DNA of 64,000 nucleotides from an uncultured bacterium (GCA_903894955.1 CAITSA010000001.1:3769-67768), one strand, 5' to 3'. Counted from the stretch's first letter, positions 1 through 62,165 are shown. Translations and numbers: made by a program. Notes: generated from the letters alone by a model not told the origin.

Positions 1-2348
1 GCTTTTTGTAAATCTTCCCCAGCAAACCTAATAGCCAACTTGATAATATCTGCAGCCGTTCCCTGAATAGGTGCATTGGTCGCGGTTCGCTCCGCCATGT
101 TTTTTAAAAAAGGAATTCTAGATTTAATATTAGGGAAATATCTTCTTCGACCAAACAATGTTTCTGTATAAGAAAATTTTGTTGCATATTCTTTAATACT
201 ATCTAAATAATCTCGCAATCCAGAAAACTGATTAAAATAATTATCGTAAAATTTTTGCGCTTCTTCACGTGTCCCCCCAAGATTTTTTTTCAAAGCAGAA
301 ACTCCCATACCATAAATAATTCCAAAATTTATCACTTTTGCTTTACGGCGCATTTCACTATCCACTTGATCAAATGGAACATTAAAAACAAAAGAAGCAA
401 TTCCAGTATGAATATCTTTTTTTTCATAAAAAACTTTAGTCATCTTTTTATCTCCTGAGAGCATCGCTGCCACCCGTAATTCAATCTGACTATAATCAAA
501 AGCTACTAGCTTATAACCCTTGGGAGCAATAAAACCCCCTCGAATTCTTCTACCTAATTCTGTTTTGATTGGTAAATTTTGTAGATTTGGATCTTTGGAA
601 GAAAATCTCCCCGTGGTAGTGCCATTTTGTAAAAACTTAGCATGTAAACGACCATCGGTCGTCACCATTTTAGGGATAACATCAACATAAGTAGAAAGCA
701 ATTTCTGTAATTCTCGATAAAATAATATTTCTTTGATAATTAAATGATCTTCTTCTAATTCTTCTAACACTGAAACTTTAGTAGAAAAAGACCCACTAGC
801 ATTTTTCTTTACTTTATTTTTCCCTCCCAAACTTATCCCCATTTTACCAAAAATAACTTCTCCTAATTGTTTGGGTGAATTAATATTAAATTCTACGCCA
901 GCCTGTTTATATATTTTTTTAGTTAAAATATCTAATTCTACGTGATATTCACTTGATAATTTTTCAAAATATTTCTGATCTATTAAAATCCCGTGACTTT
1001 CCATCTCTTTAACTGTGGGAATAATAGGTTTTTCTATTTCTTCATATACTTTTTCTAAACTTGCCCCGCCCTGGCGTGGGTTTTTCTCTTTTAACTTTTT
1101 TAAAATATATTCATAAGCAATATCAAAAGAACCTTGGTCAGTTGATGAAGATGATATATTGGCAAACATTAAAATATCATTTAGTTGTGGATTAGAAATA
1201 TCAGAATTTATAATCCAAAGAGCAATACTAGCTTCTTGAAGTTTTTGTGGGGGAATTAAAGAAAGCAAAGTTTTCTCGGGTCCTCGGTTCTCCAGGTCCC
1301 CTACCCCGGCCAGACCAGCTCCAAAACTTGCTTTCTTTAATTCCCCTTCTGGGGCAGAACGGAGGGCATCTTCGGGAGATTTATGATTATCTCCAAAAAA
1401 GTTTTTCAAACGCCCAAACAAACTCCGAAATTCAAATTTAATAAAAATCTGTTCAATTTTTGTTAAATCTGCATTTTCCCAAAAAGTTTTTAAGGGTATT
1501 GCAAAATCTATCGGCGCATCGTTTCTGATGGTCGCTAAAATTTTAGAAAATAAAGCTTCTTCCTCATTGTCTTTTAATAATTTTACTATTCGATCAGAAA
1601 ATCCCAATTTTTTAAACTTTATTTCATAATTCGTACTTCGTAATTGTTTGTATATTTCTTCTATCGTTCCAAAGTTTACAATTAAACTTTCGGCTGTTTT
1701 TTCACCAATACCCTTGATGCCAATAATGTTATCTGAAGGATCTCCACGCAATCCTTTATAATCTGGTAAAAATTTTGGCTTGAAATGAAATCTCTCTACA
1801 ACCGCATCTTCGTCATATAAAATAGTGTCATTAATTCCTTTCTTTAAAGTATAAACTTGCACTTTTTTATCATCTACTAATTGCATTGTATCCATATCCC
1901 CAGAAGCAATAATTATATTTATACCCCCTCCGCCTTTGGCACCTCCCCCTATATAGGGGGAGGCTGGGCAGGGGTAAAATTGATACACTATCGTTCCCAA
2001 AATGTCATCTGCCTCAAACCCTGGGCTGTCATACATGGGAATATTAAAAGCTTCAAAAATCTGACGGGAATTTTTTAATTGCACAATAAGAGATTCTTCT
2101 GCTTTAGCCCGGCCAGCCTTGTACCCATCATAAGCTTCGTGTCGAAAAGTTTTTCCTGGTAAATCATAACAAGCCACAATATAATCTGGCTTTAAGTCAG
2201 TTACTATTTTCATCAACATACTAGAGAGTCCATAAAGAGCCCCGGTAGGTTCACCTTTGGAAGACATAAATTCCGGCAAGGCATGATAAGCACGGTGAAT
2301 TATAGCGTGAGCATCAAGTAATACTAAAGTTTTAATTTCTTTTTTCAT
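1..2348 (-). CDS. polA: DNA polymerase I, first ~782 codons (3' end runs off the left window edge)
   Basis: ATG at 2348-2346. My translation gives MKKEIKTLVLLDAHAIIHRAYHALP...GFEADDILGT...ASGDMDTMQLV (5'-nuclease domain). Near pos 1-100 it gives MAERTATNAPIQGTAADIIKLAI (polymerase motif) in the same frame (p mod 3 = 2). The ORF track omits it only because no stop lies inside the window. Confidence 0.9.
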   Translation of the reverse strand, partial: MKKEIKTLVLLDAHAIIHRAYHALPEFMSSKGEPTGALYGLSSMLMKIVTDLKPDYIVACYDLPGKTFRHEAYDGYKAGRAKAEESLIVQLKNSRQIFEAFNIPMYDSPGFEADDILGTIVYQFYPCPASPYIGGGAKGGGGINIIIASGDMDTMQLVDDKKVQVYTLKKGINDTILYDEDAVVERFHFKPKFLPDYKGLRGDPSDNIIGIKGIGEKTAESLIVNFGTIEEIYKQLRSTNYEIKFKKLGFSDRIVKLLKDNEEEALFSKILATIRNDAPIDFAIPLKTFWENADLTKIEQIFIKFEFRSLFGRLKNFFGDNHKSPEDALRSAPEGELKKASFGAGLAGVGDLENRGPEKTLLSLIPPQKLQEASIALWIINSDISNPQLNDILMFANISSSSTDQGSFDIAYEYILKKLKEKNPRQGGASLEKVYEEIEKPIIPTVKEMESHGILIDQKYFEKLSSEYHVELDILTKKIYKQAGVEFNINSPKQLGEVIFGKMGISLGGKNKVKKNASGSFSTKVSVLEELEEDHLIIKEILFYRELQKLLSTYVDVIPKMVTTDGRLHAKFLQNGTTTGRFSSKDPNLQNLPIKTELGRRIRGGFIAPKGYKLVAFDYSQIELRVAAMLSGDKKMTKVFYEKKDIHTGIASFVFNVPFDQVDSEMRRKAKVINFGIIYGMGVSALKKNLGGTREEAQKFYDNYFNQFSGLRDYLDSIKEYATKFSYTETLFGRRRYFPNIKSRIPFLKNMAERTATNAPIQGTAADIIKLAIRFAGEDLQK

Positions 2349-12337: not shown

Positions 12338-12514
12338 AATTGGCAACAAAAAAAGCATTAATCTCTAAACAATCCTTTCGGAGCTGTGCTCCAAAAGTAA
12401 CAAAATATTATAGGATAGTTCCAGAAACTAATAAAAGTACCAAAACGTCCTATGCAAATTCATATAACCAAGGGCTGATTGCTTAGAGATTAATGCCTTT
12501 TTCAATTGTCAATT
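12338..12514. ncRNA. long-stem palindromic element (candidate structured RNA or elaborate terminator)
   Basis: 12348-12374 AAAAAAAGCATTAATCTCTAAACAATC is near-complementary to 12477-12502 GATTGCTTAGAGATTAATGCCTTTTT. About 100 nt between them carries two inner hairpins (GGAGCtgtGCTCC; ATAGGA...TCCTAT). Confidence 0.3.
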
Positions 12515-12661: not shown

Positions 12662-13729
12662 ATGAAATTAAGTAAAAAAATCCTTATGAAAAAAGACGAA
12701 AAAAAAGAAATAGCTGATGATTCTTTTTTAGATCAAACCCTCCGCCCTACTCGATGGGATGAATATATTGGTCAAAAACACATAAAAGACAACGTTAAAA
12801 TCTTATTGCGAGCTGCCCAAGAACGCGGGCACATTCCAGAGCATCTTCTTTTTTATGGACCTCCTGGATTAGGGAAAACTACCTTAGCGCATTTAATTGC
12901 CAAAGAAACTGGCAAGCAAATGAAAATTACTTCTGGTCCAGCCATAGAAAAAGTTGGTGACTTGGCTTCAATTCTAACAAATTTGGCTTCTGGGGACATC
13001 CTTTTTATAGATGAAATTCACAGACTAAATAAAATGGTTGAGGAAATACTCTACCCTGCTATGGAGTCTGGAGTTTTAGATATTATTATCGGTAAAGGCC
13101 CTTCCGCGCGTACTATTCAGCTTGATCTCCCCCCTTTTACTTTAATTGCTGCCACGACTCGAGTGGCCATGGTTTCTTCTCCGCTTCGTTCTCGTTTTTC
13201 GGGAGGAGTTTTTCGTTTGGAATTTTACTCTAATGAGGAAATTGCAAAAATTGTTGAAAGGTCCAGTAAACTTTTAAAAATAAATTTAGCTCCGGAAGCC
13301 TTAAAAGAAATTGCGGAAAGGAGTAGGTTTACTCCTCGTACTGCAAATTACTTTTTGAAACGTTGTCGCGATTTCGCTCAAGTGTACCCCGAAGGAAAGC
13401 AAGCTTCCTACGGGGCAGGTGAAAAAGCTATTAGTAAAGAAATGGCGAGAAAAGCTCTTGCTATGCTGGCTATTGATGATATTGGTTTGAATTCTTCAGA
13501 TAGAAAATTTCTGGAAATATTAATTGAAAAATTCAAAGGTGGACCAGTGGGATTAAAAACTATGTCAGCCGCTATGTCAGAAGAAGAAGCGACTGTAGAA
13601 GAAGTGATAGAACCATACTTAATTCAATTAGGTTTACTAGAACGCACCGCCCGCGGAAGAGTTGCGACCAATAAAGCATATGAGCATTTAGGGTTTGACT
13701 CGAAAGAAAAACAAGAAAAACTTTTATAA
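12662..13729 (+). CDS. ruvB: Holliday junction branch-migration ATPase RuvB
   Basis: Start moved to ATG 12662 (MKLSKK). Walker A GPPGLGKTT, Walker B LFIDEIHR, RTANYFLKRCRDFA. Confidence 0.9.
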   Translation: MKLSKKILMKKDEKKEIADDSFLDQTLRPTRWDEYIGQKHIKDNVKILLRAAQERGHIPEHLLFYGPPGLGKTTLAHLIAKETGKQMKITSGPAIEKVGDLASILTNLASGDILFIDEIHRLNKMVEEILYPAMESGVLDIIIGKGPSARTIQLDLPPFTLIAATTRVAMVSSPLRSRFSGGVFRLEFYSNEEIAKIVERSSKLLKINLAPEALKEIAERSRFTPRTANYFLKRCRDFAQVYPEGKQASYGAGEKAISKEMARKALAMLAIDDIGLNSSDRKFLEILIEKFKGGPVGLKTMSAAMSEEEATVEEVIEPYLIQLGLLERTARGRVATNKAYEHLGFDSKEKQEKLL

Positions 13730-14177: not shown

Positions 14178-14663
14178 ATGACACGAATTTTAGGGATAGA
14201 TCCAGGATACGAACGACTTGGGGTCGCTATCTTGGAAAAGAATAAAGGTGATAAAAAAGAAAGAGTGCTTTTTTCGGAATGTTTTAAAACTTCAGCTAAA
14301 TTAAATTTTTCTGAACGATTATTTTTAATTGGCGAAGAAGTAAAAAAAGTAATAAATAAATACAAACCAGAAGTTCTTTCAATTGAAACTCTTTTCCTAA
14401 ACACTAATCAAAAAACAGTGATGAAAGTCGCAGAAGCACGCGGAGTGGTTGTTTATGAAGCTGTCAGCGCTGGATTGAAAATATTTGAAGCTTCTCCTCC
14501 CCAAATAAAAATAGCCACCACGGGTTACGGCCGAGCCAACAAAGAACAAATAACAAAAATGGTAAAAATATTAGTGGACATCGAAAAATCTAAAACCTCT
14601 GACGATGAATTGGACGCTATCGCTATCGCACTAACAGCCCTTGCTTGCCTAAAAATGAAGTAA
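14178..14663 (+). CDS. ruvC: crossover junction endodeoxyribonuclease RuvC
   Basis: ILGIDPGYERLG N-terminus, ...ELDAIAIAL C-terminal acidic motif; 161 aa. Confidence 0.85.
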   Translation: MTRILGIDPGYERLGVAILEKNKGDKKERVLFSECFKTSAKLNFSERLFLIGEEVKKVINKYKPEVLSIETLFLNTNQKTVMKVAEARGVVVYEAVSAGLKIFEASPPQIKIATTGYGRANKEQITKMVKILVDIEKSKTSDDELDAIAIALTALACLKMK

Positions 14664-14758
14664 TACTTTTAAAAACCGCACATAATTTTCTGCTGAAAAT
14701 TTGCTATGCTCGGCTCGCCAGCCTGCGCAATGCTTTTTAAAAGTATTACTTCATTTTT
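14651..14758 (+). repeat. arm-core-arm element, copy A (conserved hairpin CTCGGCTCGCCAGCCT at 14709-14724)
   Basis: 25-bp perfect inverted arms (14651-14675 / 14734-14758). The left arm contains the last codons and stop of ruvC. The 58-nt core shares its architecture with 25589, 49870 and 59225. Confidence 0.7.
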
Positions 14759-14850
14759 AAGTACAAGTTATCCACATTTGCTATTGCCAAGCTTTTTATA
14801 TTTTGATACAAAGTATGCATTAGTAGGAATTTAATAAAAATAAATTTTTT

Positions 14851-25107: not shown

Positions 25108-25590
25108 ATGAAAAAAGAAGAGATTCAAAATTTAATAAAAGATTTAATTGAAAAAACTACAGTAAAATTAAATGGAATTTCGATGGTTGATGATGGACCT
25201 AAAAATGTATGGGTTTCAGTGGAAGTCAGTGAACCACATTTTTTTATTGGGCACGATGGTGATGGCTTGCACGCATTAAGTCACCTTGTTCATAGAATCA
25301 TAGAAGCTAAAACTCCTCGTGAAGAAAATTCTCTACCTCAACAAGGGTTAGGTATTATTATTGATATAAATGGTTTTCAGAAAAAACATATTGAGAATAT
25401 TCGTGCAGTAGCCCATATGATGTCAGAACGAGCAAGGTATTTCAAGTCTAATATAGAAGTTGACCCAATGTCCGCTTTTGAACGTAGAATCGTTCATGAA
25501 TTTTTAGCCGAATCAAGTGATCTAAAGACTGAATCTATGGGAATAGGGCGTGATCGCCGAGTGGTGATTAAATATATAGGAGCGATTTAA
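25108..25590 (+). CDS. jag: Jag/SpoIIIJ-associated KH + R3H RNA-binding protein
   Basis: C-terminal R3H context ERRIVHEFLAE...GRDRRVVI; follows yidC. Confidence 0.8.
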   Translation: MKKEEIQNLIKDLIEKTTVKLNGISMVDDGPKNVWVSVEVSEPHFFIGHDGDGLHALSHLVHRIIEAKTPREENSLPQQGLGIIIDINGFQKKHIENIRAVAHMMSERARYFKSNIEVDPMSAFERRIVHEFLAESSDLKTESMGIGRDRRVVIKYIGAI

Positions 25591-25731
25591 AAATATAAAT
25601 ATGACTTTTTCCGGTACGGATTTTTAGTCGCACCAAAAGGACTTGCGCGACATGATTCCGCAGAATCAAAAATCCTGAAGTTCTCGGCTCGTCAGCCTCG
25701 AAACCCCTTCAAAAGGCATATTTATATTTTT
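25589..25731 (+). repeat. arm-core-arm element, copy B (conserved hairpin CTCGGCTCGTCAGCCT at 25683-25698)
   Basis: 15-bp perfect inverted arms AAAAATATAAATATG / CATATTTATATTTTT. The core matches copy C except for an enlarged first hairpin. Confidence 0.7.
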
Positions 25732-31838: not shown

Positions 31839-32285
31839 TTACTTATTATTCTCTTTTTGTTTACTTAAATCTAATATATCCAAACTCCAAGCTAAATCTC
31901 GTAACTTACTCCCGCTTAACTGGTCGCCTTCTTTTATCATTTGAACTTTATTTGTATTATTATTTTTTTCCCCGCCCGCATCGCCTTGCGAAGCATGGCG
32001 GGCAGGTATACGTTTTTTCCAGATGTAAAGTTTATTTTGGGTAAAATATTTAAAACTTGATTCTAGCATATTCACAAAAGGTTTATTATTTGGTTTATAA
32101 AAAGTAAGGGTTAGAGAAAATCCAGCCATGATTAAAATCGGGATTGCTCCCATCACGAGACCTAATAATTTATACAATACAAAACATAGGCCTGCTCCTC
32201 CTGCCAAGTAAATAAATTCCCTAAAAGTAAAAGGACCAAATATTTTATCTTCAATATCTAAAAATTGTGGAACTTTGAATTGCAT
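31839..32285 (-). CDS. PrgI/VirB3-like small membrane protein
   Basis: MQFKVPQFLDIEDKIFGPFTFREFIYLAGGAG followed by two TM helices; directly upstream of the VirB4 ORFs. Confidence 0.6.
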   Translation of the reverse strand: MQFKVPQFLDIEDKIFGPFTFREFIYLAGGAGLCFVLYKLLGLVMGAIPILIMAGFSLTLTFYKPNNKPFVNMLESSFKYFTQNKLYIWKKRIPARHASQGDAGGEKNNNTNKVQMIKEGDQLSGSKLRDLAWSLDILDLSKQKENNK

Positions 32286-32566
32286 CCCGTTAGAGATAGG
32301 AAGCGCCTAATCTATTTTTAAGATAACGCTTGCCCATTCCTGATTTTAAAAATAACTCTCTCGACCTCGCTTTACTTTTTAATAAGCACCCTTCGTAGTA
32401 TATCAAAATAAATGGGCCTCGTCCTTTCGTATATGTAGATAAACCTTTATTGTGCTGACTTAGGCGCTTTCGTAGGTCTTGCGTATATCCCGTATAAATT
32501 TTACCGTCCTTCTTACTTTTTAAGATATATGTGTAATAAAACATAAGTGATCTCTAACGGGATGCA
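32281..32566 (-). mobile_element. GIY-YIG gene cassette bounded by 17-bp perfect inverted repeats
   Basis: TGCATCCCGTTAGAGAT (32281-32297) and ATCTCTAACGGGATGCA (32550-32566) are exact reverse complements. Between them lies only the GIY-YIG ORF. Confidence 0.65.
32290..32544 (-). CDS. GIY-YIG nuclease-domain protein (short, UPF0213-like)
   Basis: YYTYILKSKKDGKIYTGYTQDLRKRLSQHNKG; 84 aa. Confidence 0.8.
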   Translation of the reverse strand: MFYYTYILKSKKDGKIYTGYTQDLRKRLSQHNKGLSTYTKGRGPFILIYYEGCLLKSKARSRELFLKSGMGKRYLKNRLGASYL

Positions 32567-43490: not shown

Positions 43491-45560
43491 TTATAAGTAA
43501 ATTGTTTTTATTCCACTGGCCTCACCTTCTTTTTTTAAAATATCAGCTGGAATATCTGAAATAAATTCTGATGGTGTATTTATCTGGCGTGATCCAAAAA
43601 TAGTCCGGAAATTTGCAAATGACAAAAATAATTTTTCTTTAGCGCGAGTGAGTGCCACATAAAAAAGTCTGCGTTCTTCCTCGTCGTCTTCATTTGCTTT
43701 ATTTTCATTTTGTCTTTCGTGTGGGAAAAGTCCATCTTCTAATCCTGTAATAAAAACATATTTAAATTCAAGTCCTTTTGAAGCATGGACGGTCATAAGT
43801 TTTATAGCGTTTACTTTTTCTTTTTTTTCTTGATTAATCATTAATGAATCTTGATCTGATGCTAGTGACGCATCTTCTAAAAGTTTTTCTACTCCTGTTC
43901 CACTTGTTAGATTGTCATATTTGAGTGCAAGGGTGGCGAGCTCTTTGATGTTTTCTAATCTCTCCATATCTTCTTCGGTTCCAGCAGAAAGTTCTTGTTC
44001 AATCCCGGACTTTTTAACTACAAATTTTATTATCTCGCTTGTCTTTAAACCTTGTTTTTGTTCATCTTGTCTGGATATTTTTTCTTTTATCTCTTCGAGT
44101 ATTTTATAAAAATTATTAATTTTTATTTGCATTTTTATCGGCAAGGTTTCTCTTTGTCCAGAAAAAATTTTCATTAAAGTTACTTTTCCGATGCCTCGTG
44201 CTGGGAAATTTATTATTCTTTTTATATCAGATAAACTATCGGGGTTTAGAGCTGCTCGTAAATAGGCTAAAGTATCTTTAATTTCTTTTCTTTCAAAAAA
44301 TTTAACACCTAAAACTTGATATGGGATATTATACCGAAGCATCGCTTCTTCCAAAACTCTGGACTGAAAATTTGCACGATAAAGAATTGCTATTTCAAAC
44401 AAATGAGAGGATGTTACTTTTGTGGGGTCGCTGTCTGTGCCTACTGGCACAGCGCTGCCTCTCGGCCCGTCGGCCTGTGAGACACCCCTCAAAAGCAAAT
44501 CCTCTCCTTTGTCTAGTATTTCTAGAATTTTTGTTGCGACGAATTCTCCTTCGTCTGTTTCGTCGAGTGCTTCATATAAGCCTATCTTCTCCCCTTCCAC
44601 ATTGTTTGTAAATAAATTTTTATCTGGTCTATATTTATTTTTCTTGATTACCACATTGGCTGCTTCTAAAATATTTTTTGTAGATCTGTAATTTTGTTCC
44701 AGTAAAATTATTTTTGCATTTGGATAATCTTTTTCAAAATTTAAAATATTTTTCAAATTTGCTCCGCGCCAAGAATAGATATTTTGATCTGCATCACCCA
44801 CCACGCAAATATTTCTATTAGTATTTGTTAGTAATTTAGACATCAAATACTGCACTTCATTTGTGTCTTGATATTCATCGATGTGTATATATTCCCATCT
44901 TTCTTGATAAATTTTTCTTATCTCTTTGTTTTCTTTTAATAATTTTGTAGTCTTTAACAACAGATCATCAAAATCTAATGCATTCTCTTTTGTCTTTTGT
45001 TTTTCATATAAATTCCAAACTTGAGCCACAATTTTCCCCAAAGAATTTCCTCCTCCCTCTTCCCTTTCTACATAATCCGCTAAATATACAAACTTTCCTT
45101 TTTCTCGGGAAATTATATTTTTGATTTTTTTTGGATCATATTGTTTCGGGTCTAAGCTAAGCTCTTTTAAGATATTCTTTATCAGAGTGGTGGTATCATT
45201 TTCGTCTAAAATAGTAAAATATTTTGTTAAACCTAAAAGTTGTGCATTTTCTTTTATAATATAGACTCCCAAAGAGTGGAAGGTGCTGACGAAAGGAATT
45301 TTATCTTGTCCTTTGGCATTTTTTTGGATTTCTCCGATAATTCTCTCGCGCATTTCTTTAGCTGCTTTGTTGGTGAACGTGACCGCTAAAATTTTATCAG
45401 GCGAAACTCCATTTTTTATTAGATTGACAATTCGATGCGTAATAGTCTTTGTTTTTCCCGCTCCCGCTCCAGCCACAATCAAAAGTGGACCCTTCACATG
45501 AAGTGCTGCCTCTTTTTGCTCCTTATTGAGACCTTTTAAATGCTGTTCGTCTATAGCCAC
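43491..45560 (-). CDS. pcrA: UvrD/PcrA-family SF1 DNA helicase
   Basis: AGAGAGKTKTITHR, IHIDEYQDTN, VGDADQNIYSWRGA, TVHASKGLEF. Confidence 0.9.
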   Translation of the reverse strand: MAIDEQHLKGLNKEQKEAALHVKGPLLIVAGAGAGKTKTITHRIVNLIKNGVSPDKILAVTFTNKAAKEMRERIIGEIQKNAKGQDKIPFVSTFHSLGVYIIKENAQLLGLTKYFTILDENDTTTLIKNILKELSLDPKQYDPKKIKNIISREKGKFVYLADYVEREEGGGNSLGKIVAQVWNLYEKQKTKENALDFDDLLLKTTKLLKENKEIRKIYQERWEYIHIDEYQDTNEVQYLMSKLLTNTNRNICVVGDADQNIYSWRGANLKNILNFEKDYPNAKIILLEQNYRSTKNILEAANVVIKKNKYRPDKNLFTNNVEGEKIGLYEALDETDEGEFVATKILEILDKGEDLLLRGVSQADGPRGSAVPVGTDSDPTKVTSSHLFEIAILYRANFQSRVLEEAMLRYNIPYQVLGVKFFERKEIKDTLAYLRAALNPDSLSDIKRIINFPARGIGKVTLMKIFSGQRETLPIKMQIKINNFYKILEEIKEKISRQDEQKQGLKTSEIIKFVVKKSGIEQELSAGTEEDMERLENIKELATLALKYDNLTSGTGVEKLLEDASLASDQDSLMINQEKKEKVNAIKLMTVHASKGLEFKYVFITGLEDGLFPHERQNENKANEDDEEERRLFYVALTRAKEKLFLSFANFRTIFGSRQINTPSEFISDIPADILKKEGEASGIKTIYL

Positions 45561-48785: not shown

Positions 48786-49865
48786 TTGCGATATTTAGTT
48801 TGTTTTATAAAACGTTCAACTAAAACAGTTAGCAAAATATTTAGATCTACTTTAGCCTCTTCTTTATTGCTTGGGACTCTTTTTATGTCTGCCAGAGTAG
48901 CTCAAGCAGATTTCCTTTCTTCTATCTTTGGTGGTGGCCAAGCTTATGCGCTTCAAGTTAGTGATTCTAATCAAGTTACAGATGGTAAAAATAATGATGA
49001 TTCAGTAACTATTACCGATGATAGTGGTACTGCCCTTGTTCCAGCAACTGGTCTTTCGGGCGGGCAAGATGTCTCTGCTTCTTCAGGAGACACAAGTGTT
49101 TATGTAGTTAGGCCGGGAGATAATATTGCCACTATCGCTAAAATGTTTGATGTTTCGGTAGATACTATTCTTTGGGCTAATGACATGAAAAAGGGAGATA
49201 AACTTACGACAGGCGATGTCCTTTTGATTTTACCTATTTCTGGGCTTGAACATACAGTTACTAAAGGTCAAACCTTACAGAGTATTGCCAAGCTTTATAA
49301 AGTGGACGTAAATGACATTATTCAAAACAATGATGTTACTGAGGATACCAAACTAGCCGTTGGTGATACGCTTATTGTTCCGAATGCCTCAAAATCTGAA
49401 GAAAGTGGTATTCCCGTCAAGGACACAAAGGCAAGCACCGTAAAAGATAATCAATATTATCAAAAGCATCCTATCAAGAATCTTGCTGGGTATTATGTAA
49501 ATCCTGTACCAGGCTATAGAAAAAGCCAAGGTATTCATGACAATAATGCGGTAGATCTCGCTATCCCCAGAGGAACTTCTGTTCACGCGGCTGCTTCTGG
49601 TACTGTTACTCTTGCTAGACTTGGATACAATGGAGGGTTCGGAGGATTAGTAATTATTTCTCACCCAAATGGAACATCAACTCTTTATGCTCATTTATCC
49701 AAGTTGTCTACCTATACCGGAGAAAGTGTTTCTCAAGGTGAAGTAATTGCATCTTCTGGAGGTGTCCCTGGGACTCCTTATGCCGGACATTCTACTGGCG
49801 CACACCTACACTTTGAAGTTCATGGAGCAAGGAATCCAGGGGCAGATGGATCTTGGGCAAATTAA
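48786..49865 (+). CDS. secreted LysM-LysM-M23 peptidoglycan endopeptidase (TTG start)
   Basis: Signal peptide ...LFMSARVAQA. Two LysM repeats (YVVRPGDNIATIAKMF; HTVTKGQTLQSIAKLY). M23 motifs GIHDNNAVDLA...HLHFEV. Confidence 0.85.
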   Translation: MRYLVCFIKRSTKTVSKIFRSTLASSLLLGTLFMSARVAQADFLSSIFGGGQAYALQVSDSNQVTDGKNNDDSVTITDDSGTALVPATGLSGGQDVSASSGDTSVYVVRPGDNIATIAKMFDVSVDTILWANDMKKGDKLTTGDVLLILPISGLEHTVTKGQTLQSIAKLYKVDVNDIIQNNDVTEDTKLAVGDTLIVPNASKSEESGIPVKDTKASTVKDNQYYQKHPIKNLAGYYVNPVPGYRKSQGIHDNNAVDLAIPRGTSVHAAASGTVTLARLGYNGGFGGLVIISHPNGTSTLYAHLSKLSTYTGESVSQGEVIASSGGVPGTPYAGHSTGAHLHFEVHGARNPGADGSWAN

Positions 49866-49869
49866 AATT

Positions 49870-49973
49870 CTTTAGAATATAACTTTTTCCGGTACGGATT
49901 TTTCGAAGCTTGAAAAATCCTGAAGTTCTCGGCTCGTCAGCCTCGAAACCCCTACAAAAATTATATTCTAAAG
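49870..49973 (+). repeat. arm-core-arm element, copy C (conserved hairpin CTCGGCTCGTCAGCCT at 49928-49943)
   Basis: 13-bp perfect arms CTTTAGAATATAA / TTATATTCTAAAG. Core: TTTTTCCGGTAC-[GGATTTTTCGAAGCTTGAAAAATCC]-TGAAGTT-CTCGGCTCGTCAGCCT-CGAAACCCCTAC. Confidence 0.7.
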
Positions 49974-49977
49974 ATAT

Positions 49978-50703
49978 TTAAATTCCAGCGAGATGAATTG
50001 CTCCAAATAAAACAACCACTCCTAATATAGTAGCTACTGTAGTCCACATAGTGGGATGATTGTGGTGGCTTTCTGGTAGTAAATCAGATGCTCCTATGTA
50101 CAAGAAAAATCCAGTAAATAAAGCAAGAATTATCCCTAAGGTTGATTCTGATACTGAAAAAAATAAAGTAGAAGTTATTCCCAAGACTGGAGCAATGGCG
50201 TCAACTAACAGCCAGCTAAAAGCTTGTTTTTTTGTACCAGAATTTTTTAAGATCATATTAACTGTATTTATTCCATCAGAAAAATCATGAACTAATACAG
50301 CAACAGCTACGATAGCACCAACAGCGCTTGATACTTGGAAAGCTAAACCGATAGCAGCCCCATCTAGAAAACTATGCGCAGATAAACTTCCAGCTCCAAG
50401 CAATCCCCTTTTATTTGGATTACACCCCTCATCATTATGGTCACAGTGTGAATGAAAGAAAAAGAGTCTATCTAAAATCATATAAATTACGAAACCAAGA
50501 GCGGTAATGGAGGTAATCAAACTAAGATCATAACTTCCTCCTCCTAGTTCTAATGCTTCAGGCAATAAATCAAAAAATGCTACACCAATAACTGCTCCAG
50601 CCGAGAATCCTAAAATTAAATGTAGTTTATCTTTGAAACGCAAAGCGAACATTCCACCCAAGAATGTGGAAACTAATGTTGCAATAGCTATGAATATAAT
50701 CAT
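49978..50703 (-). CDS. ZIP-family divalent metal transporter
   Basis: HDFSDGINTV, LLPESHHNH; about 8 TM; 241 aa. Confidence 0.8.
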   Translation of the reverse strand: MIIFIAIATLVSTFLGGMFALRFKDKLHLILGFSAGAVIGVAFFDLLPEALELGGGSYDLSLITSITALGFVIYMILDRLFFFHSHCDHNDEGCNPNKRGLLGAGSLSAHSFLDGAAIGLAFQVSSAVGAIVAVAVLVHDFSDGINTVNMILKNSGTKKQAFSWLLVDAIAPVLGITSTLFFSVSESTLGIILALFTGFFLYIGASDLLPESHHNHPTMWTTVATILGVVVLFGAIHLAGI

Positions 50704-50984: not shown

Positions 50985-51416
50985 TCACAAAATAATATCA
51001 TTGACCACTTTTATTCTTGCTTTTTTGTTTTTTATATCAAGAAATACAACCAATAAATCTATTTGCCATTCTTTATCATCCGATATTTTTTCAGACAAAA
51101 GATAAGTTTGAATTGTTCGTGATAAACGTTTTAATTTCCACGGATGCATGTTGTCTTCAGGTCTAGGATCAGATATTTCATGCCCGCCTTGTCTAATTGA
51201 GGCAGGTAAAACATTGTTTAAGGTTTCACAGGCAACTGATTTTACCTCAATAAAGTATAATTTATTAGCTTTTTCAGCTATTATATCTATTTCACCCCAT
51301 TTTTTAGTATAATTTCGATCTAATATTGAAAAATTATGTTTCACGAGAAACTTTACTGCAATGTTTTCGCCAATCTCCCCTATTTTTTGTGTTTTTGATG
51401 TAAATACTTTTGGCAT
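50985..51416 (-). CDS. yraN: YraN-family (UPF0102) endonuclease-like protein
   Basis: GENIAVKFL...WGEIDIIA...LYFIEVKS. Confidence 0.75.
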   Translation of the reverse strand: MPKVFTSKTQKIGEIGENIAVKFLVKHNFSILDRNYTKKWGEIDIIAEKANKLYFIEVKSVACETLNNVLPASIRQGGHEISDPRPEDNMHPWKLKRLSRTIQTYLLSEKISDDKEWQIDLLVVFLDIKNKKARIKVVNDIIL

Positions 51417-51486
51417 TTTAATTTTACCAATATTAAATCTTAATTTTACAAGGTTTTATAAGAAAAATGTTAGTTTCACATGGAAC

Positions 51487-51504
51487 ATGTTTCACGTGAA
51501 ACAT
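51487..51504. promoter_or_regulatory. 18-bp perfect palindrome ATGTTTCACGTGAAACAT (candidate operator)
   Basis: Exact dyad about 70 nt upstream of the yraN start. An extra half-site AGTTTCACATGGAAC lies immediately upstream. Confidence 0.4.
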
Positions 51505-54170: not shown

Positions 54171-54238
54171 TATTTAGTAGATTTCTTGCTGATAACACCC
54201 CGATAGCAGAGCAAGCTCGCTACGGGGCAGGAGTTTCA

Positions 54239-56625: not shown

Positions 56626-57441
56626 TTAAATCTCTAGCCAAATTGGACAGTGGTCCGAGCCGTAATAATCAGACAACATGCCCGTGGCTTTTATCCCGAC
56701 GCTTTTAGGTCGGGACCCCGACAACGAAGTTCGTCGGGGCTTTAGATCTTTGAAAAAAATTTCATCGGCAAAAAAATAATCAAGACGCCAGCCGACATTT
56801 CTATCTCTAGCGCGAGTTTTGATATCCCAATATGTATAAGCGCCAATTTTTTCTGGATAAAACTTTCTAAATACATCAATGAATTTATTTTTTATTACTT
56901 TATCAATCCAAGCACGTTCTATGGGCAAGAAACCAGTATTTTCAACGTTAGCTTTCGGGCGGGCAAGGTCGATTTCTTCATGGGCTGTATTTATATCTCC
57001 ACAAAAAATTACATTTTCGCCATTCTTTCGCAACTTCAGGATAAATTTTAGAAAAGCTTCGTAAAATTCTAATTTATATTTTAATCTATGTGGTCCTTGG
57101 CCACCATTTGGAAAATATCCAGTAATGATGGTGCAATTTTTTAATTTTACACCAAGCAATCTTCCCTCGTTGTCTAATTTTTTTACACCCATACCATAAA
57201 AAACTTCTCTCGGTTTTTCTTTAGTGTAAATTGCTACCCCACTGTATCCTTTCTTAATTTTTGGATGTGAAAAGTAAGAATAATATCCAGAAATATTTCG
57301 TACTTCGGGAGGCAATTGTTCTGGAGTGGCTTTTGTTTCTTGTAGACATAAAATATCTGGTCTGTTTTTAAATAGGGGAATAAAAAATCCTTGTTTTGCT
57401 GTTGCCCGAAGCCCGTTGGTGTTCCAAGAAATTATTTTCAT
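56626..57441 (-). CDS. xthA: exodeoxyribonuclease III
   Basis: [31 protein letters not shown]. Confidence 0.9.
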   Translation of the reverse strand: [271 protein letters not shown]

Positions 57442-59224: not shown

Positions 59225-59356
59225 AAGATTTAAAACTCTTTCTTGGCATACTTTTTATAAAGCAATCTATCTGGCGAAGCTTCGCCAGCGAACTGCTCGG
59301 CTCGTCAGCCTGCGCAAGGCTTTCAAAAAAGTACGCCTGCAACAAGTTTTTAAATC
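59225..59356 (+). repeat. arm-core-arm element, copy D (conserved hairpin CTCGGCTCGTCAGCCT at 59296-59311)
   Basis: Long imperfect arms (AGATTTAAAACT..GGCATACTTTTTATAAAGC / GCTTTCAAAAAAGTACGCC..AAGTTTTTAAATCT). The core resembles copy A. Confidence 0.65.
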
Positions 59357-59372
59357 TGCTATAATTAAGTAT

Positions 59373-60014: not shown

Positions 60015-62165
60015 ATGGGCGAATATATGCAAAAAAAAGAATATAGTGTAGAGATTGGCGGAAAAACATTAACGGCTATTTTTACTGATTTAGCTGAACA
60101 AGCTCATGGTTCAGTAATATTAAAATATGGAGAAACAATTGTTCTGGCCACTGTTTGTATGTCTCATGACAAACAAAAAGGTTTAGGATATTTTAATTTG
60201 ACAGTTGATTATGTAGAAAAATTTTATGCAGCTGGAAAAATTTTAGGTTCACGTTTTGTTAGACGAGAAGGGAGACCTTCAGAAGAAGCTATCCTTGCCA
60301 GTCGAGTTATCGACAGGACTCTTCGTCCACTTTTTGATCAATCGATTCGTCACGCGGTGCAAGTCATTGTGACGGTTCTTTCGGTAGACGACAATGATCC
60401 GACGATTTTAGCAGTTAATGCAGCCTCTCTCGCTTTAGCTGTTTCGAATATTCCATGGAATGGTCCTATTGGTTGTGTGCGTATTGGTAAATACGATAAC
60501 GATAATCTAATCATCAATCCAGCCCAGTCTTTGCGTATAGATGAGGATACTCAATATAAGTTTGACCTAACTGTTTGCGGGAAAGATGGAAATATAAATA
60601 TGATTGAAGCCTCTGCCCGTCAGAGCAAGGAAGAAGAATTAGAAGAAGCCTTAGAAAAGGCAAGTATTGAAATAACTAAACTAGAAAATTTTCAAAAGAA
60701 AATAGTGGGAGAAATAGGTAAAGAAAAAAGAATTATTGAGAAAGAAATAATTTCTCCAGAATCAGTGGCTTTATTTAATGAAAATATTTTACCCAAAATG
60801 GAGGAAGCACTTTTTGGCGAAGCGGGCCTGCCTGCGCAGTCAGGCAAAAAGAAAATAGATGATTTGCATAATATGTGGAATAAAATGGTGCAGGATAAAT
60901 TCAAAGACCGAGACGATTTCTTCTTAGAAGATAATTTGTTTGATGATGCAGAAAATGAAATCTTGCACAAAAAAGCGATAGCAGAAAACAAAAGAGCTGA
61001 TGGAAGAAAGATGGACGAACTTCGTGATTTATATGCTCAAGCCGGAGGATTTTCGAGTAAATTACATGGTTCGGGAATTTTTTATCGTGGAGGAACACAT
61101 GTGCTTTCAGTCCTCACCTTAGGTGGTCCTGAAGATAGAAATTTAGTTGATGGCTTACAGTTGAAAGTAGAGAAAAGATTTATGCATCATTATAATTTTC
61201 CTCCTTATTCTGGAGGAGAAGTAGGAAGATCAGGTTTTACTAATCGCCGAGAAATTGGACATGGAGCCCTCGCCGAAAAAGCTCTAGCGATGGTTCTGCC
61301 TTCAGTTTCAGAATTTCCATATACCATGAGAATTGTTTCTGAATCAATGGCTTCTAATGGTTCTACTTCACAAGCAAGTATTTGCGCTTCTATTCTCGCC
61401 TTGATGGATGGCGGAGTGCCAATTAAAGCACCTGTCGCTGGCATAGCGATGGGCTTGATGATTGAAGATGATGCAAAATACAAAATTTTGACTGACATTC
61501 AAGGACCCGAAGATCATCATGGTGATATGGATTTCAAAATTGCTGGAACGAGAATTGGTGTTACCGCTATCCAGCTTGATGTAAAAGTAGAAGGAGTATC
61601 GATAAAAATATTAGGGGAAGCAATGAGACAAGGAAAAATTGCACGGGTAGTTATTATTGATAGACTAGAAAAAGAAATTCCAAAATCCCGAGACAATATT
61701 TCTCCAAACGCACCAAAGATTTTAATTATTAAAATTAATCCTGAAAAAATTGGTTTAGTGATTGGTGGTGGAGGAAAAACAATCAAAGAAATTAAAGAAA
61801 AATCTGGCGCGGAAATAACCATTGAAGATGACGGAACTGTTTATTTGACCGGAAAAGATGGATCAGCTGAAAAAGCAAAAGAATTAGTTGAAGAGATGAC
61901 TCATGAATTTAAAGTGGGGGAAATGTTGAAAGGTGAGGTTATGAAAATTCTTGATTTTGGAGCTTTTGTGGCCTTGAATCCTTTCACGGATGGAATGGTG
62001 CATATTTCTGAAATAGCACCATTTCGCGTCGAGAGAGTATCAGATATAATAAAGGAAGGGATGATTGTTCCAGTGAAAGTTATCTCTATTGATAAAGAAA
62101 GAGGGAAAATTGGTCTATCTATTAAAGAAGCGGATAAAGATTTTTTTAATGGCGGAAAAAAATAA
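60015..62165 (+). CDS. pnp: polyribonucleotide nucleotidyltransferase (PNPase)
   Basis: Two RNase PH domains; KH (VIGGGGKTIKEI); S1 (GEVMKILDFGAFVAL). Follows rpsO as usual. Confidence 0.9.
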   Translation: MGEYMQKKEYSVEIGGKTLTAIFTDLAEQAHGSVILKYGETIVLATVCMSHDKQKGLGYFNLTVDYVEKFYAAGKILGSRFVRREGRPSEEAILASRVIDRTLRPLFDQSIRHAVQVIVTVLSVDDNDPTILAVNAASLALAVSNIPWNGPIGCVRIGKYDNDNLIINPAQSLRIDEDTQYKFDLTVCGKDGNINMIEASARQSKEEELEEALEKASIEITKLENFQKKIVGEIGKEKRIIEKEIISPESVALFNENILPKMEEALFGEAGLPAQSGKKKIDDLHNMWNKMVQDKFKDRDDFFLEDNLFDDAENEILHKKAIAENKRADGRKMDELRDLYAQAGGFSSKLHGSGIFYRGGTHVLSVLTLGGPEDRNLVDGLQLKVEKRFMHHYNFPPYSGGEVGRSGFTNRREIGHGALAEKALAMVLPSVSEFPYTMRIVSESMASNGSTSQASICASILALMDGGVPIKAPVAGIAMGLMIEDDAKYKILTDIQGPEDHHGDMDFKIAGTRIGVTAIQLDVKVEGVSIKILGEAMRQGKIARVVIIDRLEKEIPKSRDNISPNAPKILIIKINPEKIGLVIGGGGKTIKEIKEKSGAEITIEDDGTVYLTGKDGSAEKAKELVEEMTHEFKVGEMLKGEVMKILDFGAFVALNPFTDGMVHISEIAPFRVERVSDIIKEGMIVPVKVISIDKERGKIGLSIKEADKDFFNGGKK

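Follow-up and report, generated by a model that had tools for sequence, protein, structure and literature searches.

Rickettsia palindromic elements (RPEs; Ogata et al. 2000, as summarised in PMC10969869) are short palindromic repeats, present in several families in a reduced AT-rich genome, which are inserted in frame into many unrelated housekeeping genes with the open reading frame (ORF) maintained and with the inserted peptide placed where the protein tolerates it. They are about 100-150 bp in length and are reported to lose repeat identity with time (PMC6649704). Bacterial MITEs, such as Correia/NEMIS, ERIC, BOX and the Coxiella QMITE (PMC10969869, PMC5896051), are small, non-autonomous and multicopy, have conserved short terminal inverted repeats, and are occasionally intragenic, giving in-frame fusions. 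Template-switch (quasipalindrome) mutagenesis is a general mutational mechanism rather than a mobile element (PMC8794818, PMC8604942, PMC7202029); switching between inverted-repeat arms homogenises the arms and inverts the spacer (PMC8604942), and can also create and maintain hairpins (PMC8794818). Near-perfect inverted repeats of up to 284 bp are found inside translated genes of an organelle genome in Nematomorpha, where they are gained and lost between species, both arms encode conserved protein segments, there is no conserved mobile core, and the arms are apparently kept identical by a conversion process rather than by function. The GC clusters of yeast mitochondrial DNA and the double-hairpin elements of fungal mtDNA are GC-rich palindromic mobile clusters scattered through very AT-rich genomes, including coding regions; their reported target duplications are direct, and they are not known to have long site-specific stems.

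Here we describe a hairpin inside the DNA polymerase I gene (polA) of an uncultured bacterium, found in a 64,000-nucleotide stretch of DNA (GCA_903894955.1 CAITSA010000001.1:3769-67768; hereafter the window). It is one copy of a widespread family of small GC-rich mobile elements, here called F1, that sit in frame inside essential genes of ultra-small (CPR/Patescibacteria) bacteria. The analogy with RPEs, which had been drawn in the first-pass annotation of the window, holds at the level of how the element works: it is multicopy, belongs to one of several families, and lies in frame in unrelated genes. It is an analogy and not a demonstrated sequence relation; the phylum differs (Patescibacteria, not Alphaproteobacteria), the names attached to homologues placing the organism in the Nomurabacteria/Paceibacterota, and we do not file the element as an RPE. 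The element proper is smaller, at about 70 nt, its long stem is largely site-specific local sequence that remains about 96% Watson-Crick paired, and the same hotspots are reused by several families and in both orientations. Compared with MITEs, no direct target-site duplication was found, most of the stem is not conserved between copies, and most copies are intragenic (75 of about 90 in the genome loci examined). With the Nematomorpha repeats, which are much longer, F1 shares near-perfect inverted repeats inside translated genes that are gained and lost between species and whose arms are apparently kept identical by a conversion process rather than by function, turnover here being judged on a quick neighbour-joining tree without support values. 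The mitochondrial GC clusters occur in organelles and have different sequences. Literature searches for a prior description in Patescibacteria, Parcubacteria or Nomurabacteria found none.

A palindromic insert in the polA linker

The observation made in the first-pass annotation, a foldback of two 24-nt arms and a GC-rich core lying in frame in polA, is confirmed. A repeat search of the window identified inverted arms at 1250-1273 and 1323-1346, which are 24 nt long and 92% complementary without gaps, with 49 nt between them; when a single bulged A is allowed, 1250-1274 pairs throughout. The 48-nt core (1275-1322) occurs once in the window even with three mismatches allowed, against 0 expected, and the spacer is 61% GC, in contrast to 33.5% for the surrounding 2 kb. 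Both strands fold well, at -44.3 kcal/mol (z -6.2) and -48.2 kcal/mol (z -5.7). Inverted repeats of this score (>=19, spacer 15-160 nt) appear three times in the window and in 0 of 60 Markov shuffles, and the same architecture is seen in about 200 independent public assemblies; a chance palindrome, or an assembly or amplification artefact, for which we found no supporting evidence, is thus refuted.

The host gene polA (1-2348, minus strand) starts at the ATG at 2348 and runs off the left edge of the window. Its translation is open over 782 codons, remains open through the element and reads ...PEGELKKASFGAGLAGVGDLENRGPEKTLLSLIPPQK..., and there are 120 homologues at 72-86% identity from Nomurabacteria/Paceibacterota. 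Pfam places 5_3_exonuc_N at residues 7-187, 5_3_exonuc at 190-284 and DNA_pol_A at 459-774; the insert, at about residues 334-366, therefore lies in the inter-domain region after the 5'-nuclease, as previously annotated.

The 24-nt arm is composite. On the plus strand, the outer arm GGGGAATTAAAGAA (1250-1263), downstream in gene sense, pairs with the outer arm TTCTTTAATTCCCC (1333-1346), which is upstream in gene sense and its exact reverse complement; the latter is inferred to be the pre-existing flank and the former its inverted copy. Between these arms lies the element proper of about 69-71 nt, and not the 72-nt unit of core plus one arm proposed in the first-pass annotation. It begins with a conserved left terminal repeat, AG-C-AAAGTTTT (1264-1274), with one bulged base; in an alignment of copies from 15 species this repeat occupies columns 20-30, A20, G21 and T27-T30 are invariant, and the unpaired C at column 22 is conserved, although in the window the bulge falls on the neighbouring A. 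It is followed by a conserved 5' core block, CTCGGGTCCTCGG (1275-1287), within which GGTCCTCGG is invariant in all 15 aligned copies whichever way the element faces in polA; a variable central hairpin, TTCTCCAGGTCCCCTACCCCGG (1288-1309); a conserved 3' core block, CCAGACCAGCTCC (1310-1322), in which CCAGACC is invariant in the 15 copies; and a conserved right terminal repeat, AAAACTTGCT (1323-1332; columns 80-89), which pairs with 1264-1274. The helix of the central hairpin (columns 48-53/61-66) has one covarying pair, C-G to U-A, and other copies replace it with longer or shorter hairpins. The MITE-like conservation of terminal inverted repeats among copies applies only to these inner 10-11 nt (AG-C-ARARTTTT / AAAAYTYT-CT), which are invariant or nearly so in the 15 copies.

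Two further palindromic elements were recognised in this gene. On the minus strand at 1341-1373 lies a relic of the 5' half of an in-frame element of a different family, F3 (peptide ...EDALRSAPEGE...), which carries a 9-nt deletion and aligns with intact F3 copies in the polA linkers of loci L018, L015, L013, L030 and L050 (L numbers denote the genome loci and contigs compared here). The F1 copy sits where the 3' half of this relic would be, and the gene-sense start of the arm at 1333-1346, GGGGAA, aligns with the GGGCAA of F3 cores; this arm therefore appears to derive from the older element next to it. A second GC-rich palindromic insert (1920-1979, minus strand; peptide YPCPASPYIGGGAKGGGG), which belongs to another family, lies in frame inside the 5'-nuclease N domain. 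Most orthologues have EKYKKDKN at this spot, about a dozen carry this insert, and others carry different inserts at the same place. This insert and the F1 insert are among the lowest-confidence segments of a structure model (10-residue block means 25-45) and are modelled as coil, with residues 126-141 corresponding to the second insert.

The first-pass annotation proposed that the same arm-core-arm plan recurs at 14651, 25589, 49870 and 59225 and around a GIY-YIG cassette at 32281. The first four sites exist, but belong to a different family, F2, with the motif CTCGGCTCGTCAGCC; they share the plan and not the sequence of F1. All four are intergenic and were annotated on the plus strand: at 14650-14759, at the 3' end of ruvC, with 26-nt perfect site-specific arms; at 25589-25731, between convergent genes, with 21-nt arms; at 49859-49984, between convergent genes, with 29-nt arms; and at 59225-59365, downstream of rpsO. 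A further F2 copy (44416-44504, plus strand), with the motif CTCGGCCCGTCGGCCT, lies in frame inside a uvrD/pcrA-like helicase gene (43491-45560, minus strand), in which Pfam identifies UvrD and the ORF stays open (...LLLRGVSQADGPRGSAVPVGTDSDPTKVTSSHLF...); the same family fills the polA linker of L004. A covariance model built from 15 F1 copies found only the polA copy in the window (100 bits), the other hits being generic hairpins that score equally on both strands.

The inverted repeat around the GIY-YIG gene is real (17 bp perfect, 32281-32297/32550-32566), but the cassette is a different kind of element. In four other contigs its ends are the same 12 bp, CCCGTTAGAGAT...ATCTCTAACGGG, rather than site-specific arms, and in two of these (L081 and L082) it is flanked by a 7-bp direct repeat, ATGCAAT. 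Its protein is 82-100% identical in more than 1000 clusters, and the cassette is absent from the 80 polA loci. A scan for inverted repeats up to 4 kb apart found no candidate autonomous element in the window beyond this cassette.

Occurrence and conservation of family F1

To establish whether the palindrome is an insertion, we compared polA orthologues, as had been suggested when it was first annotated. Orthologues without it exist (for example L005, L028, L036 and L062), and across 120 orthologues the linker ranges from 40 to 82 residues and carries recurring peptide classes that are alternative readings of a few DNA cores. F1 is present in one orientation 34 times and in the other 24 times, F3 29 plus 2 times, with about 29 of the 120 carrying intact F3, and about 20 have no recognised insert or another one. 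The DNA of 74 orthologous linkers shows the cores directly. At least seven core families were found among about 90 elements in 1.3 Mb, and the same families occur in uvrA, uvrB, uvrC and other genes near polA. The covariance model finds about 45 F1 copies in 1.24 Mb. An exact-pattern scan of metagenomes with GGTCCTCGG as the search motif recovered at least 120 stretches, giving at least 114 further distinct copies, every one with different arms. Pfam scans of the ORFs around metagenome copies identified the host genes as LigA, ArgRS, IleRS, UvrC, PolA, UvrD, MnmA, ThrRS, ComM, UvrA and UvrB, while a protein search with a tandem 50-residue query of the insert peptide found no candidates. Copies in different genes of one genome can be 96% identical (L043 uvrA versus uvrC) and share genome-specific substitutions. 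The F1 pattern has no hits in viral contigs; a 17-mer of F2 has 55 hits there, but in contigs with a median 62% GC, which fits chance.

The constraint on the element is on DNA and not on the peptide. The element proper is 84% identical across 15 species, in both orientations, with all three codon positions conserved, whereas in the same species 4-fold degenerate sites of flanking polA are saturated, at 33% identity, and the outer arms are 38.5% identical. These data make it very unlikely that the segment is a functional peptide module of the polymerase linker in which the palindrome is incidental. The peptide ESFGAGLAGVGDPENRGPEKTLL does recur in about 34 of 120 orthologues, but the same DNA is read in the opposite orientation as EFSQVLGSPGPHTPARPF in 24 others, the same module sits in more than 10 unrelated enzymes, about 20 orthologues lack any recognised insert, and the segment is modelled as low-confidence coil. 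The genome loci had suggested a strict rule of one frame per family, but the larger metagenome set shows all six frames of F1 in ORFs, so that only a bias remains. The high conservation of the core could also reflect a function that we have not identified.

Arms of the stem and how they may arise

The outer 13-14 nt of each arm differ at every site yet pair. Of 26 outer-stem pairs, 18 show double-sided changes, with 104 cells changed on both sides and few on one side only; 90.6% of cells are paired, against 71.6% in shuffles (0 of 500 reach the observed value) and 34-61% when the partner is slid. In 75 in-ORF elements, 1427 of 1483 arm positions are Watson-Crick, and G·U on the mRNA strand is not favoured, with 13 occurrences against 25 A·C and 18 other mismatches. 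Compensatory double changes without wobble intermediates are as expected for arms homogenised by template switching; on its own, however, that process does not explain a conserved GC-rich core appearing at new sites in many genes.

We considered whether the hairpin is instead a functional RNA structure in the mRNA, such as an RNase III or regulatory site, or a guide for RNA-level excision and religation like the inverted-repeat-triggered 'SOS splicing' of transposons in animals (PMC12779559), with selection on RNA pairing keeping the arms complementary. The strong fold and the massive covariation in the stem are consistent with this, but the same DNA is conserved in both orientations relative to transcription, and the mismatches lack the G·U preference expected on the sense strand, while a genuine conserved RNA in the same genomes is rich in G·U and has invariant arms. 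The intragenic copies recognised here all keep the ORF open through the element (75 in the genome loci and 86 of 127 metagenome matches, the rest being unclassified), which excision would make unnecessary. No Rfam 15 family matches: at gathering score only four tRNAs are found in the window, and a permissive search of 1100-2100 gives only noise (E = 0.3-0.76). We therefore rejected RNA-level selection on the stem on mismatch types and the use of both orientations, and regard an RNA function as unlikely.

Much of each arm is local and not transposed sequence. At one site in uvrA (site A), where empty and filled alleles can be cleanly compared, the gene-sense left arm consists of native codons (NLGK and variants) that are also present in empty alleles, and the right arm is their reverse complement, which is absent from empty alleles and tracks the left arm species by species. 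In the window, the corresponding arm begins in F3-derived sequence. However, at some sites (uvrA site B, uvrB and one uvrC site) neither arm is recognisable in empty alleles, so that a native arm is shown cleanly at only one site and suggested at two more. At uvrA site B, L049 and L043 have homologous arms and cores that are 40 of 47 identical only as reverse complements, although independent insertions into the same flank are not excluded.

The interpretation given in the first-pass annotation, in which the arms were probably generated with the insertion as an inverted duplication of the target, is thus partly supported: the palindrome is an insertion, it is repeated, mobile and in frame in unrelated genes, and much of its arms is local sequence, but nothing shows that the arms were made at the moment of insertion. 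A one-step origin would involve a dedicated mechanism, possibly one in which the element is joined as a hairpin cap to a broken end and the hairpin is then opened off-centre, or one in which fold-back priming occurs at a double-strand break; an inverted rather than a direct target duplication would then be the signature of a new transposition chemistry, with the conserved core as the recognition site of a trans-acting enzyme. In agreement with this, almost every copy has arms, with a median of 20-21 pairs, peaks at 16 and 23-24 and an upper limit of 29, which could mean a mechanism with a set length rather than gradual growth. Direct repeats of 3 nt or more outside the arms occur in 7.8% of 103 copies, against 4.2 ± 1.8% in permuted flanks, and none is visible at uvrA site A; direct target-site duplications are thus not enriched. 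The core blocks are invariant across species, as expected for a protein recognition site, and at uvrA site A four different families show the same geometry, with native sequence on the left and the copy on the right. By contrast, arms keep co-evolving at orthologous sites long after insertion, so a maintenance process is needed in any case; some intact cores have only 1-10 paired positions, and arm length, which varies from 1 to 29 pairs, is not fixed. No candidate enzyme was found, with no transposase seen among the few window ORFs scanned and no autonomous partner or cognate insertion sequence with the same termini (AGCAGAATTTTC...GAAAATTCTCT) found in the sequence available here, which included no whole genome, and the only nuclease cassette nearby, GIY-YIG, has conventional conserved terminal repeats. 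We consider this reading possible but doubtful.

Proposed origin and implications for Patescibacteria

Taken together, these results lead us to favor, with moderate confidence, a non-autonomous mobile DNA element like the RPEs, one of a family that populates the AT-rich genomes of Nomurabacteria/Paceibacterota. In this view, the copy in polA was inserted into an older element of another family and would be read through by the ribosome as a disordered loop of about 32 residues, while selection would remove copies that break the frame or encode harmful peptides. The outer 13-14 nt of each arm would not be part of the mobile unit, one being local gene sequence and the other its inverted copy. We infer that the stem is created, lengthened and kept perfect by intramolecular template switching, in which the nascent DNA strand folds back on the element's own hairpin and copies the opposite flank; this process also inverts the spacer, which would explain why the same core lies in both orientations between homologous arms at one site. 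Our analysis shows family membership, mobility, in-frame occupancy of many genes, nucleotide-level conservation of the core, site-specific co-evolving arms, and a native arm at one clean site, whereas translation, which rests on open frames alone, the template-switch origin and maintenance of the arms, and the way in which the core itself moves are inferred.

A more speculative and rather unlikely possibility is that the elements move by a chemistry that makes an inverted duplication of the target, through an off-centre opening of a hairpin-capped break or fold-back priming templated by the element, driven by a still unidentified enzyme, conserved in Paceibacteria, that recognises the invariant GGTCCTCGG and CCAGACC blocks. 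This would be a new class of prokaryotic transposition, and would also explain why one conserved core is found across species whose neutral sites are saturated.

The elements offer a natural experiment in hairpin evolution at the DNA level, as their stems are at neutral saturation between species yet about 96% Watson-Crick within a genome, with no wobble intermediates; the long-standing question of whether template switching builds and maintains hairpins becomes directly testable. They also constitute a second system like the RPEs, independent of them and much larger, in which hundreds of public assemblies already allow gains, losses, core swaps and inversions to be followed. For annotation and alignment, they give a concrete, sequence-level explanation for many lineage-specific 'protein insertions' in CPR genes, the inserted peptides being alternative readings of a few DNA cores. 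CPR/Patescibacteria have tiny genomes that are thought to be streamlined, yet their core replication, repair and translation genes (polA, ligA, uvrABCD and tRNA synthetases) are peppered with in-frame selfish palindromes, several families of which reuse the same hotspots.

Confirmation of an in-frame insertion at a polA hotspot

The inverted repeat singled out by the first-pass annotation is confirmed. The window has a GC content of about 33%, and on its minus strand polA starts at position 2348 and runs off the left edge. Within this gene, arms of 24 nt at 1250-1273 and 1323-1346 are 92% complementary without gaps and flank a GC-rich core that occurs once in the window. The ORF stays open through the element and reads ...PEGELKKASFGAGLAGVGDLENRGPEKTLLSLIPPQK..., and Pfam places the insert (about aa 334-366) between the 5'-nuclease domains (aa 7-284) and the polymerase domain (aa 459-774). 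An inverted repeat of this quality was never reached in 60 composition-preserving shuffles of the window, and either strand folds far better than shuffled sequence, while searches of Rfam returned no matching family.

The 120 closest PolA proteins (72-86% identity) come from Candidatus Nomurabacteria/Paceibacterota, part of the CPR, and are well conserved except at this linker, which ranges from 40 to 82 residues. The linker carries a handful of recurring peptides, with ESFGAGLAGVGDPENRGPEKTLL in 34 orthologues, EFSQVLGSPGPHTPARPFENSL in 24, ALRHSHSVLEGQDLSGRSEDSSEH in 29 and rarer classes in 13, while about 20 orthologues have no recognised insert. The first two peptides are the two strands of one DNA core; the window's own plus-strand ORF over the element reads KFSRVLGSPGPLPRPDQLQN. 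We retrieved polA loci from 80 genomes (designated by L numbers below) and extracted the linker DNA from 74 of them. Almost every occupied linker has a near-perfect inverted repeat of 14-25 nt, which is different in every species and surrounds one of a few conserved cores; the core family of the window copy is termed F1. A second in-frame GC-rich palindromic insert in polA, at 1920-1979 on the minus strand (aa 124-143), has the centre CCTCCCCCTATATAGGGGGAGG and the peptide YPCPASPYIGGGAKGGGG and lies inside the 5'-nuclease N domain. Most orthologues have EKYKKDKN there, and others carry unrelated inserts at the same spot (DPLRHSDTSPLVRGRMGGG, NPVRGREGSQRPSASNG and ISARGGSASGG). A structure model of PolA is of only moderate quality (mean pLDDT 59.8); the two inserts are among its lowest-confidence segments and are modelled as coil.

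Anatomy, constraint and distribution of the F1 family

Alignment of 15 polA copies in a common core orientation separates an element proper of about 70 nt from the outer arms. In the window copy, the element proper consists of the left terminal repeat AG-C-AAAGTTTT (1264-1274), with a conserved bulged base, the block CTCGGGTCCTCGG (1275-1287), a variable central hairpin (1288-1309), the block CCAGACCAGCTCC (1310-1322) and the right terminal repeat AAAACTTGCT (1323-1332), while the outer arms are at 1250-1263 and 1333-1346. Conservation differs sharply between these parts. The mean pairwise identity among the 15 species is 84% for the element proper, compared with 33% at 4-fold degenerate sites of 400 flanking polA codons and 38.5% in the outer arms. 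Because the core is read in opposite orientations in different species, this conservation is on the nucleotides and not on the peptide.

The arms co-evolve at the DNA level. In the same alignment, 18 of 26 outer-stem pairs show changes on both sides, and 90.6% of cells pair, against 71.6% in column shuffles (0 of 500 reach the observed value) and 34-61% when partners are slid by 1-3 columns. Across 75 in-ORF elements of all families, 1427 of 1483 arm positions are Watson-Crick, and the mismatches on the mRNA strand comprise 13 G·U, 25 A·C and 18 others, so there is no wobble tolerance. A structured-RNA candidate from the same genomes served as a control. This hairpin-closed element of about 150 nt (12349-12502, RNA sense on the minus strand) lies between a 218-aa ORF and ruvB, and is conserved in at least 24 related genomes with an invariant 20-bp closing stem (GCATTAATCTCTAAGCAATC); it has many G·U pairs and 8 covarying pairs, and has no Rfam match even at E<=1. 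By contrast with this hairpin, whose arms are invariant across species, the element stems behave as DNA palindromes and not as selected RNA helices.

In order to establish how widely the plan recurs, we scanned the window and the 80 loci (1.30 Mb) for inverted repeats and found about 90 arm-core-arm elements in at least 7 core families, nearly all of them inside long open reading frames. A covariance model of F1 finds about 45 copies in 1.24 Mb, but only the polA copy in the window. A search of metagenome contigs with an exact F1 pattern recovered at least 120 stretches, with at least 127 matches and at least 114 distinct copies, in contigs of 27-49% GC; every one of these copies has different arms, with a median of 21 pairs. 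Pfam scans of 20 host ORFs identified 11 protein families in 19 of them: NAD-ligase, ArgRS, IleRS, ThrRS, UvrA, UvrB, UvrC, UvrD, PolA, MnmA and a ComM/ChlI ATPase. Copies in different genes of one genome share genome-specific substitutions, and the uvrA and uvrC copies of L043 are 96% identical. All six reading frames of F1 occur in ORFs, with a bias toward hydrophilic readings.

The first-pass annotation had listed further sites of the same plan in the window. The plan does recur, but the intergenic copies at 14650, 25589, 49859 and 59225, together with an in-frame copy in uvrD at 44416, belong to another family, F2, with the motif CTCGGCTCGTCAGCC. All five F2 copies carry this conserved motif on the plus strand (at 14709, 25683, 44461, 49928 and 59296), whatever the orientation of the neighbouring genes, and the four intergenic copies abut gene 3' ends and overlap stop codons, so that they could double as terminators. 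Two copies of yet another small GC-rich hairpin family, ACCCCGAnnGnAnAGCAAGCTnnCTACGGGGCAGG, are present at 13386-13419, in frame in RuvB, and at 54198-54231, between genes. Further GC-rich palindromic islands lie inside or at the edge of ORFs at 31962-32015 (a PrgI-like gene), 56679-56748 (an ORF junction) and 60797-60855 (the PNPase gene), and may be more in-frame elements of other families. The cumulative GC skew of the window reaches its minimum near 50-52 kb, where an AT-rich intergenic region (51336-51504) holds repeated TGTTTCAC boxes in an inverted arrangement next to tRNA genes, which may mark a replication origin; a perfect TTATCCACA box also lies just after the F2 copy, at about 14770.

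The GIY-YIG cassette, which had been grouped with these elements, is instead a conventional element. It spans 32281-32566, contains an 84-aa GIY-YIG nuclease gene (32290-32544, minus strand) and is bounded by the 12-bp terminal repeat CCCGTTAGAGAT/ATCTCTAACGGG, which is conserved in four other contigs; in two of these four a direct ATGCAAT repeat also flanks the cassette. It is inserted exactly between the stop of the upstream gene and the ATG of a PrgI-like gene. The protein is 82-100% identical in more than 1000 clusters, often on very short contigs, and in contig L084, which is not one of the 80 polA loci, the cassette lies between two phosphoribosyltransferase-domain ORFs, possibly a split gene. 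This looks like a mobile mini-gene that supplies a stop and a start to its neighbours.

Origin of the arms and turnover of the elements

UvrA is about 85% identical across species and provides clean empty and filled alleles at one site (uvrA site A). Empty alleles read ...ANLGK/TNKRKVMG, with the slash marking the point of insertion, while filled alleles read ...KNLGK[KNFSGLTLPGVPVGTHTIQNSSSQGS]KSNKRKVMG. The outer part of the left arm is the native NLGK codons, which vary between species, and the outer part of the right arm is their reverse complement, which is absent from empty alleles and tracks the left arm species by species. Four different core families occupy this one site in different species. 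In the window, the gene-sense left arm begins inside a relic of an element of a different family, F3, as GAAGATGCCCTCCGT...TCTGCCCCAGAAGGGGAA aligns with intact F3 copies apart from a 9-nt deletion; that arm therefore appears to have pre-existed, and the other arm (1250-1263) is inferred to be the copy. A mirror-image case is seen in uvrB of L007, where F1 sits inside an F3 that retains only its 3' half. Nested or serial insertions, with F1 inside F3 or halves of two families side by side, occur in L007 (14722-14828) and in the polA linkers of L016, L025 and L059, which shows that resident elements are themselves preferred targets or are partly overwritten. At uvrA site B, in uvrB and at one uvrC site, however, neither arm is recognisable in empty alleles, and some intact cores have only 1-10 paired positions. 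No direct target duplication was found flanking the hairpins. At uvrC, some 'empty' alleles (for example those of L021, L049 and L040; alignment columns 168-191) carry GAGAATTTTTCT or GAGAATTCT exactly at the hotspot, which resembles the terminal repeat of the elements and may be a target preference or an excision footprint.

On a quick neighbour-joining tree of UvrA, presence, family and orientation at each site are patchy, even between sister genomes. At uvrA site B, L049 and L043 have homologous arms (CAGAAGAAYAC.TTTT), while their cores are 40 of 47 identical only as reverse complements, which is what spacer inversion between retained arms would give, although independent insertions into the same flank are not excluded.

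Interpretation and relation to known elements

The interpretation offered in the first-pass annotation is only partly supported by these results. It was correct that the feature is an insertion, that it lies in frame, that the plan recurs in the window and that arm sequence is of local origin, and the analogy it drew with Rickettsia palindromic elements (RPEs) holds. However, the inner 10-11 nt of each arm belong to the element, and the proposal that the arms were generated with the insertion is not established. Full-text searches of the literature found RPEs and bacterial MITEs, but no description of such elements in Patescibacteria. The family works like an RPE, but differs in that it is in a new phylum, is much more abundant in public data, has stems that are site-specific and co-evolve, has no direct target duplication, and has several families that reuse the same hotspots in both orientations.

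Template switching between inverted-repeat arms is documented to homogenise arms and invert spacers (PMC8604942), and to create and maintain perfect hairpins (PMC8794818); the same idea was proposed for perfect coding palindromes in nematomorph mitochondria (PMC6649704). This fits the Watson-Crick-only compensation, site-specific arms, variable arm length and apparently flipped cores described here. The main rival is that the inverted duplication is made at integration by a dedicated enzyme, a possibility kept open by the peaks in arm length at 16 and 23-24 pairs and by the invariant core blocks. While the family membership, mobility and co-evolving arms of these elements rest on direct sequence comparison, the template-switch step is inferred. 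Taken together, our best explanation has two parts: a mobile core of about 70 nt, similar in behaviour to a Rickettsia palindromic element, would land by an as yet unidentified route in tolerant, often already occupied, loops of essential proteins; fold-back template switching on its hairpin would then add and maintain an inverted copy of the adjacent flank.
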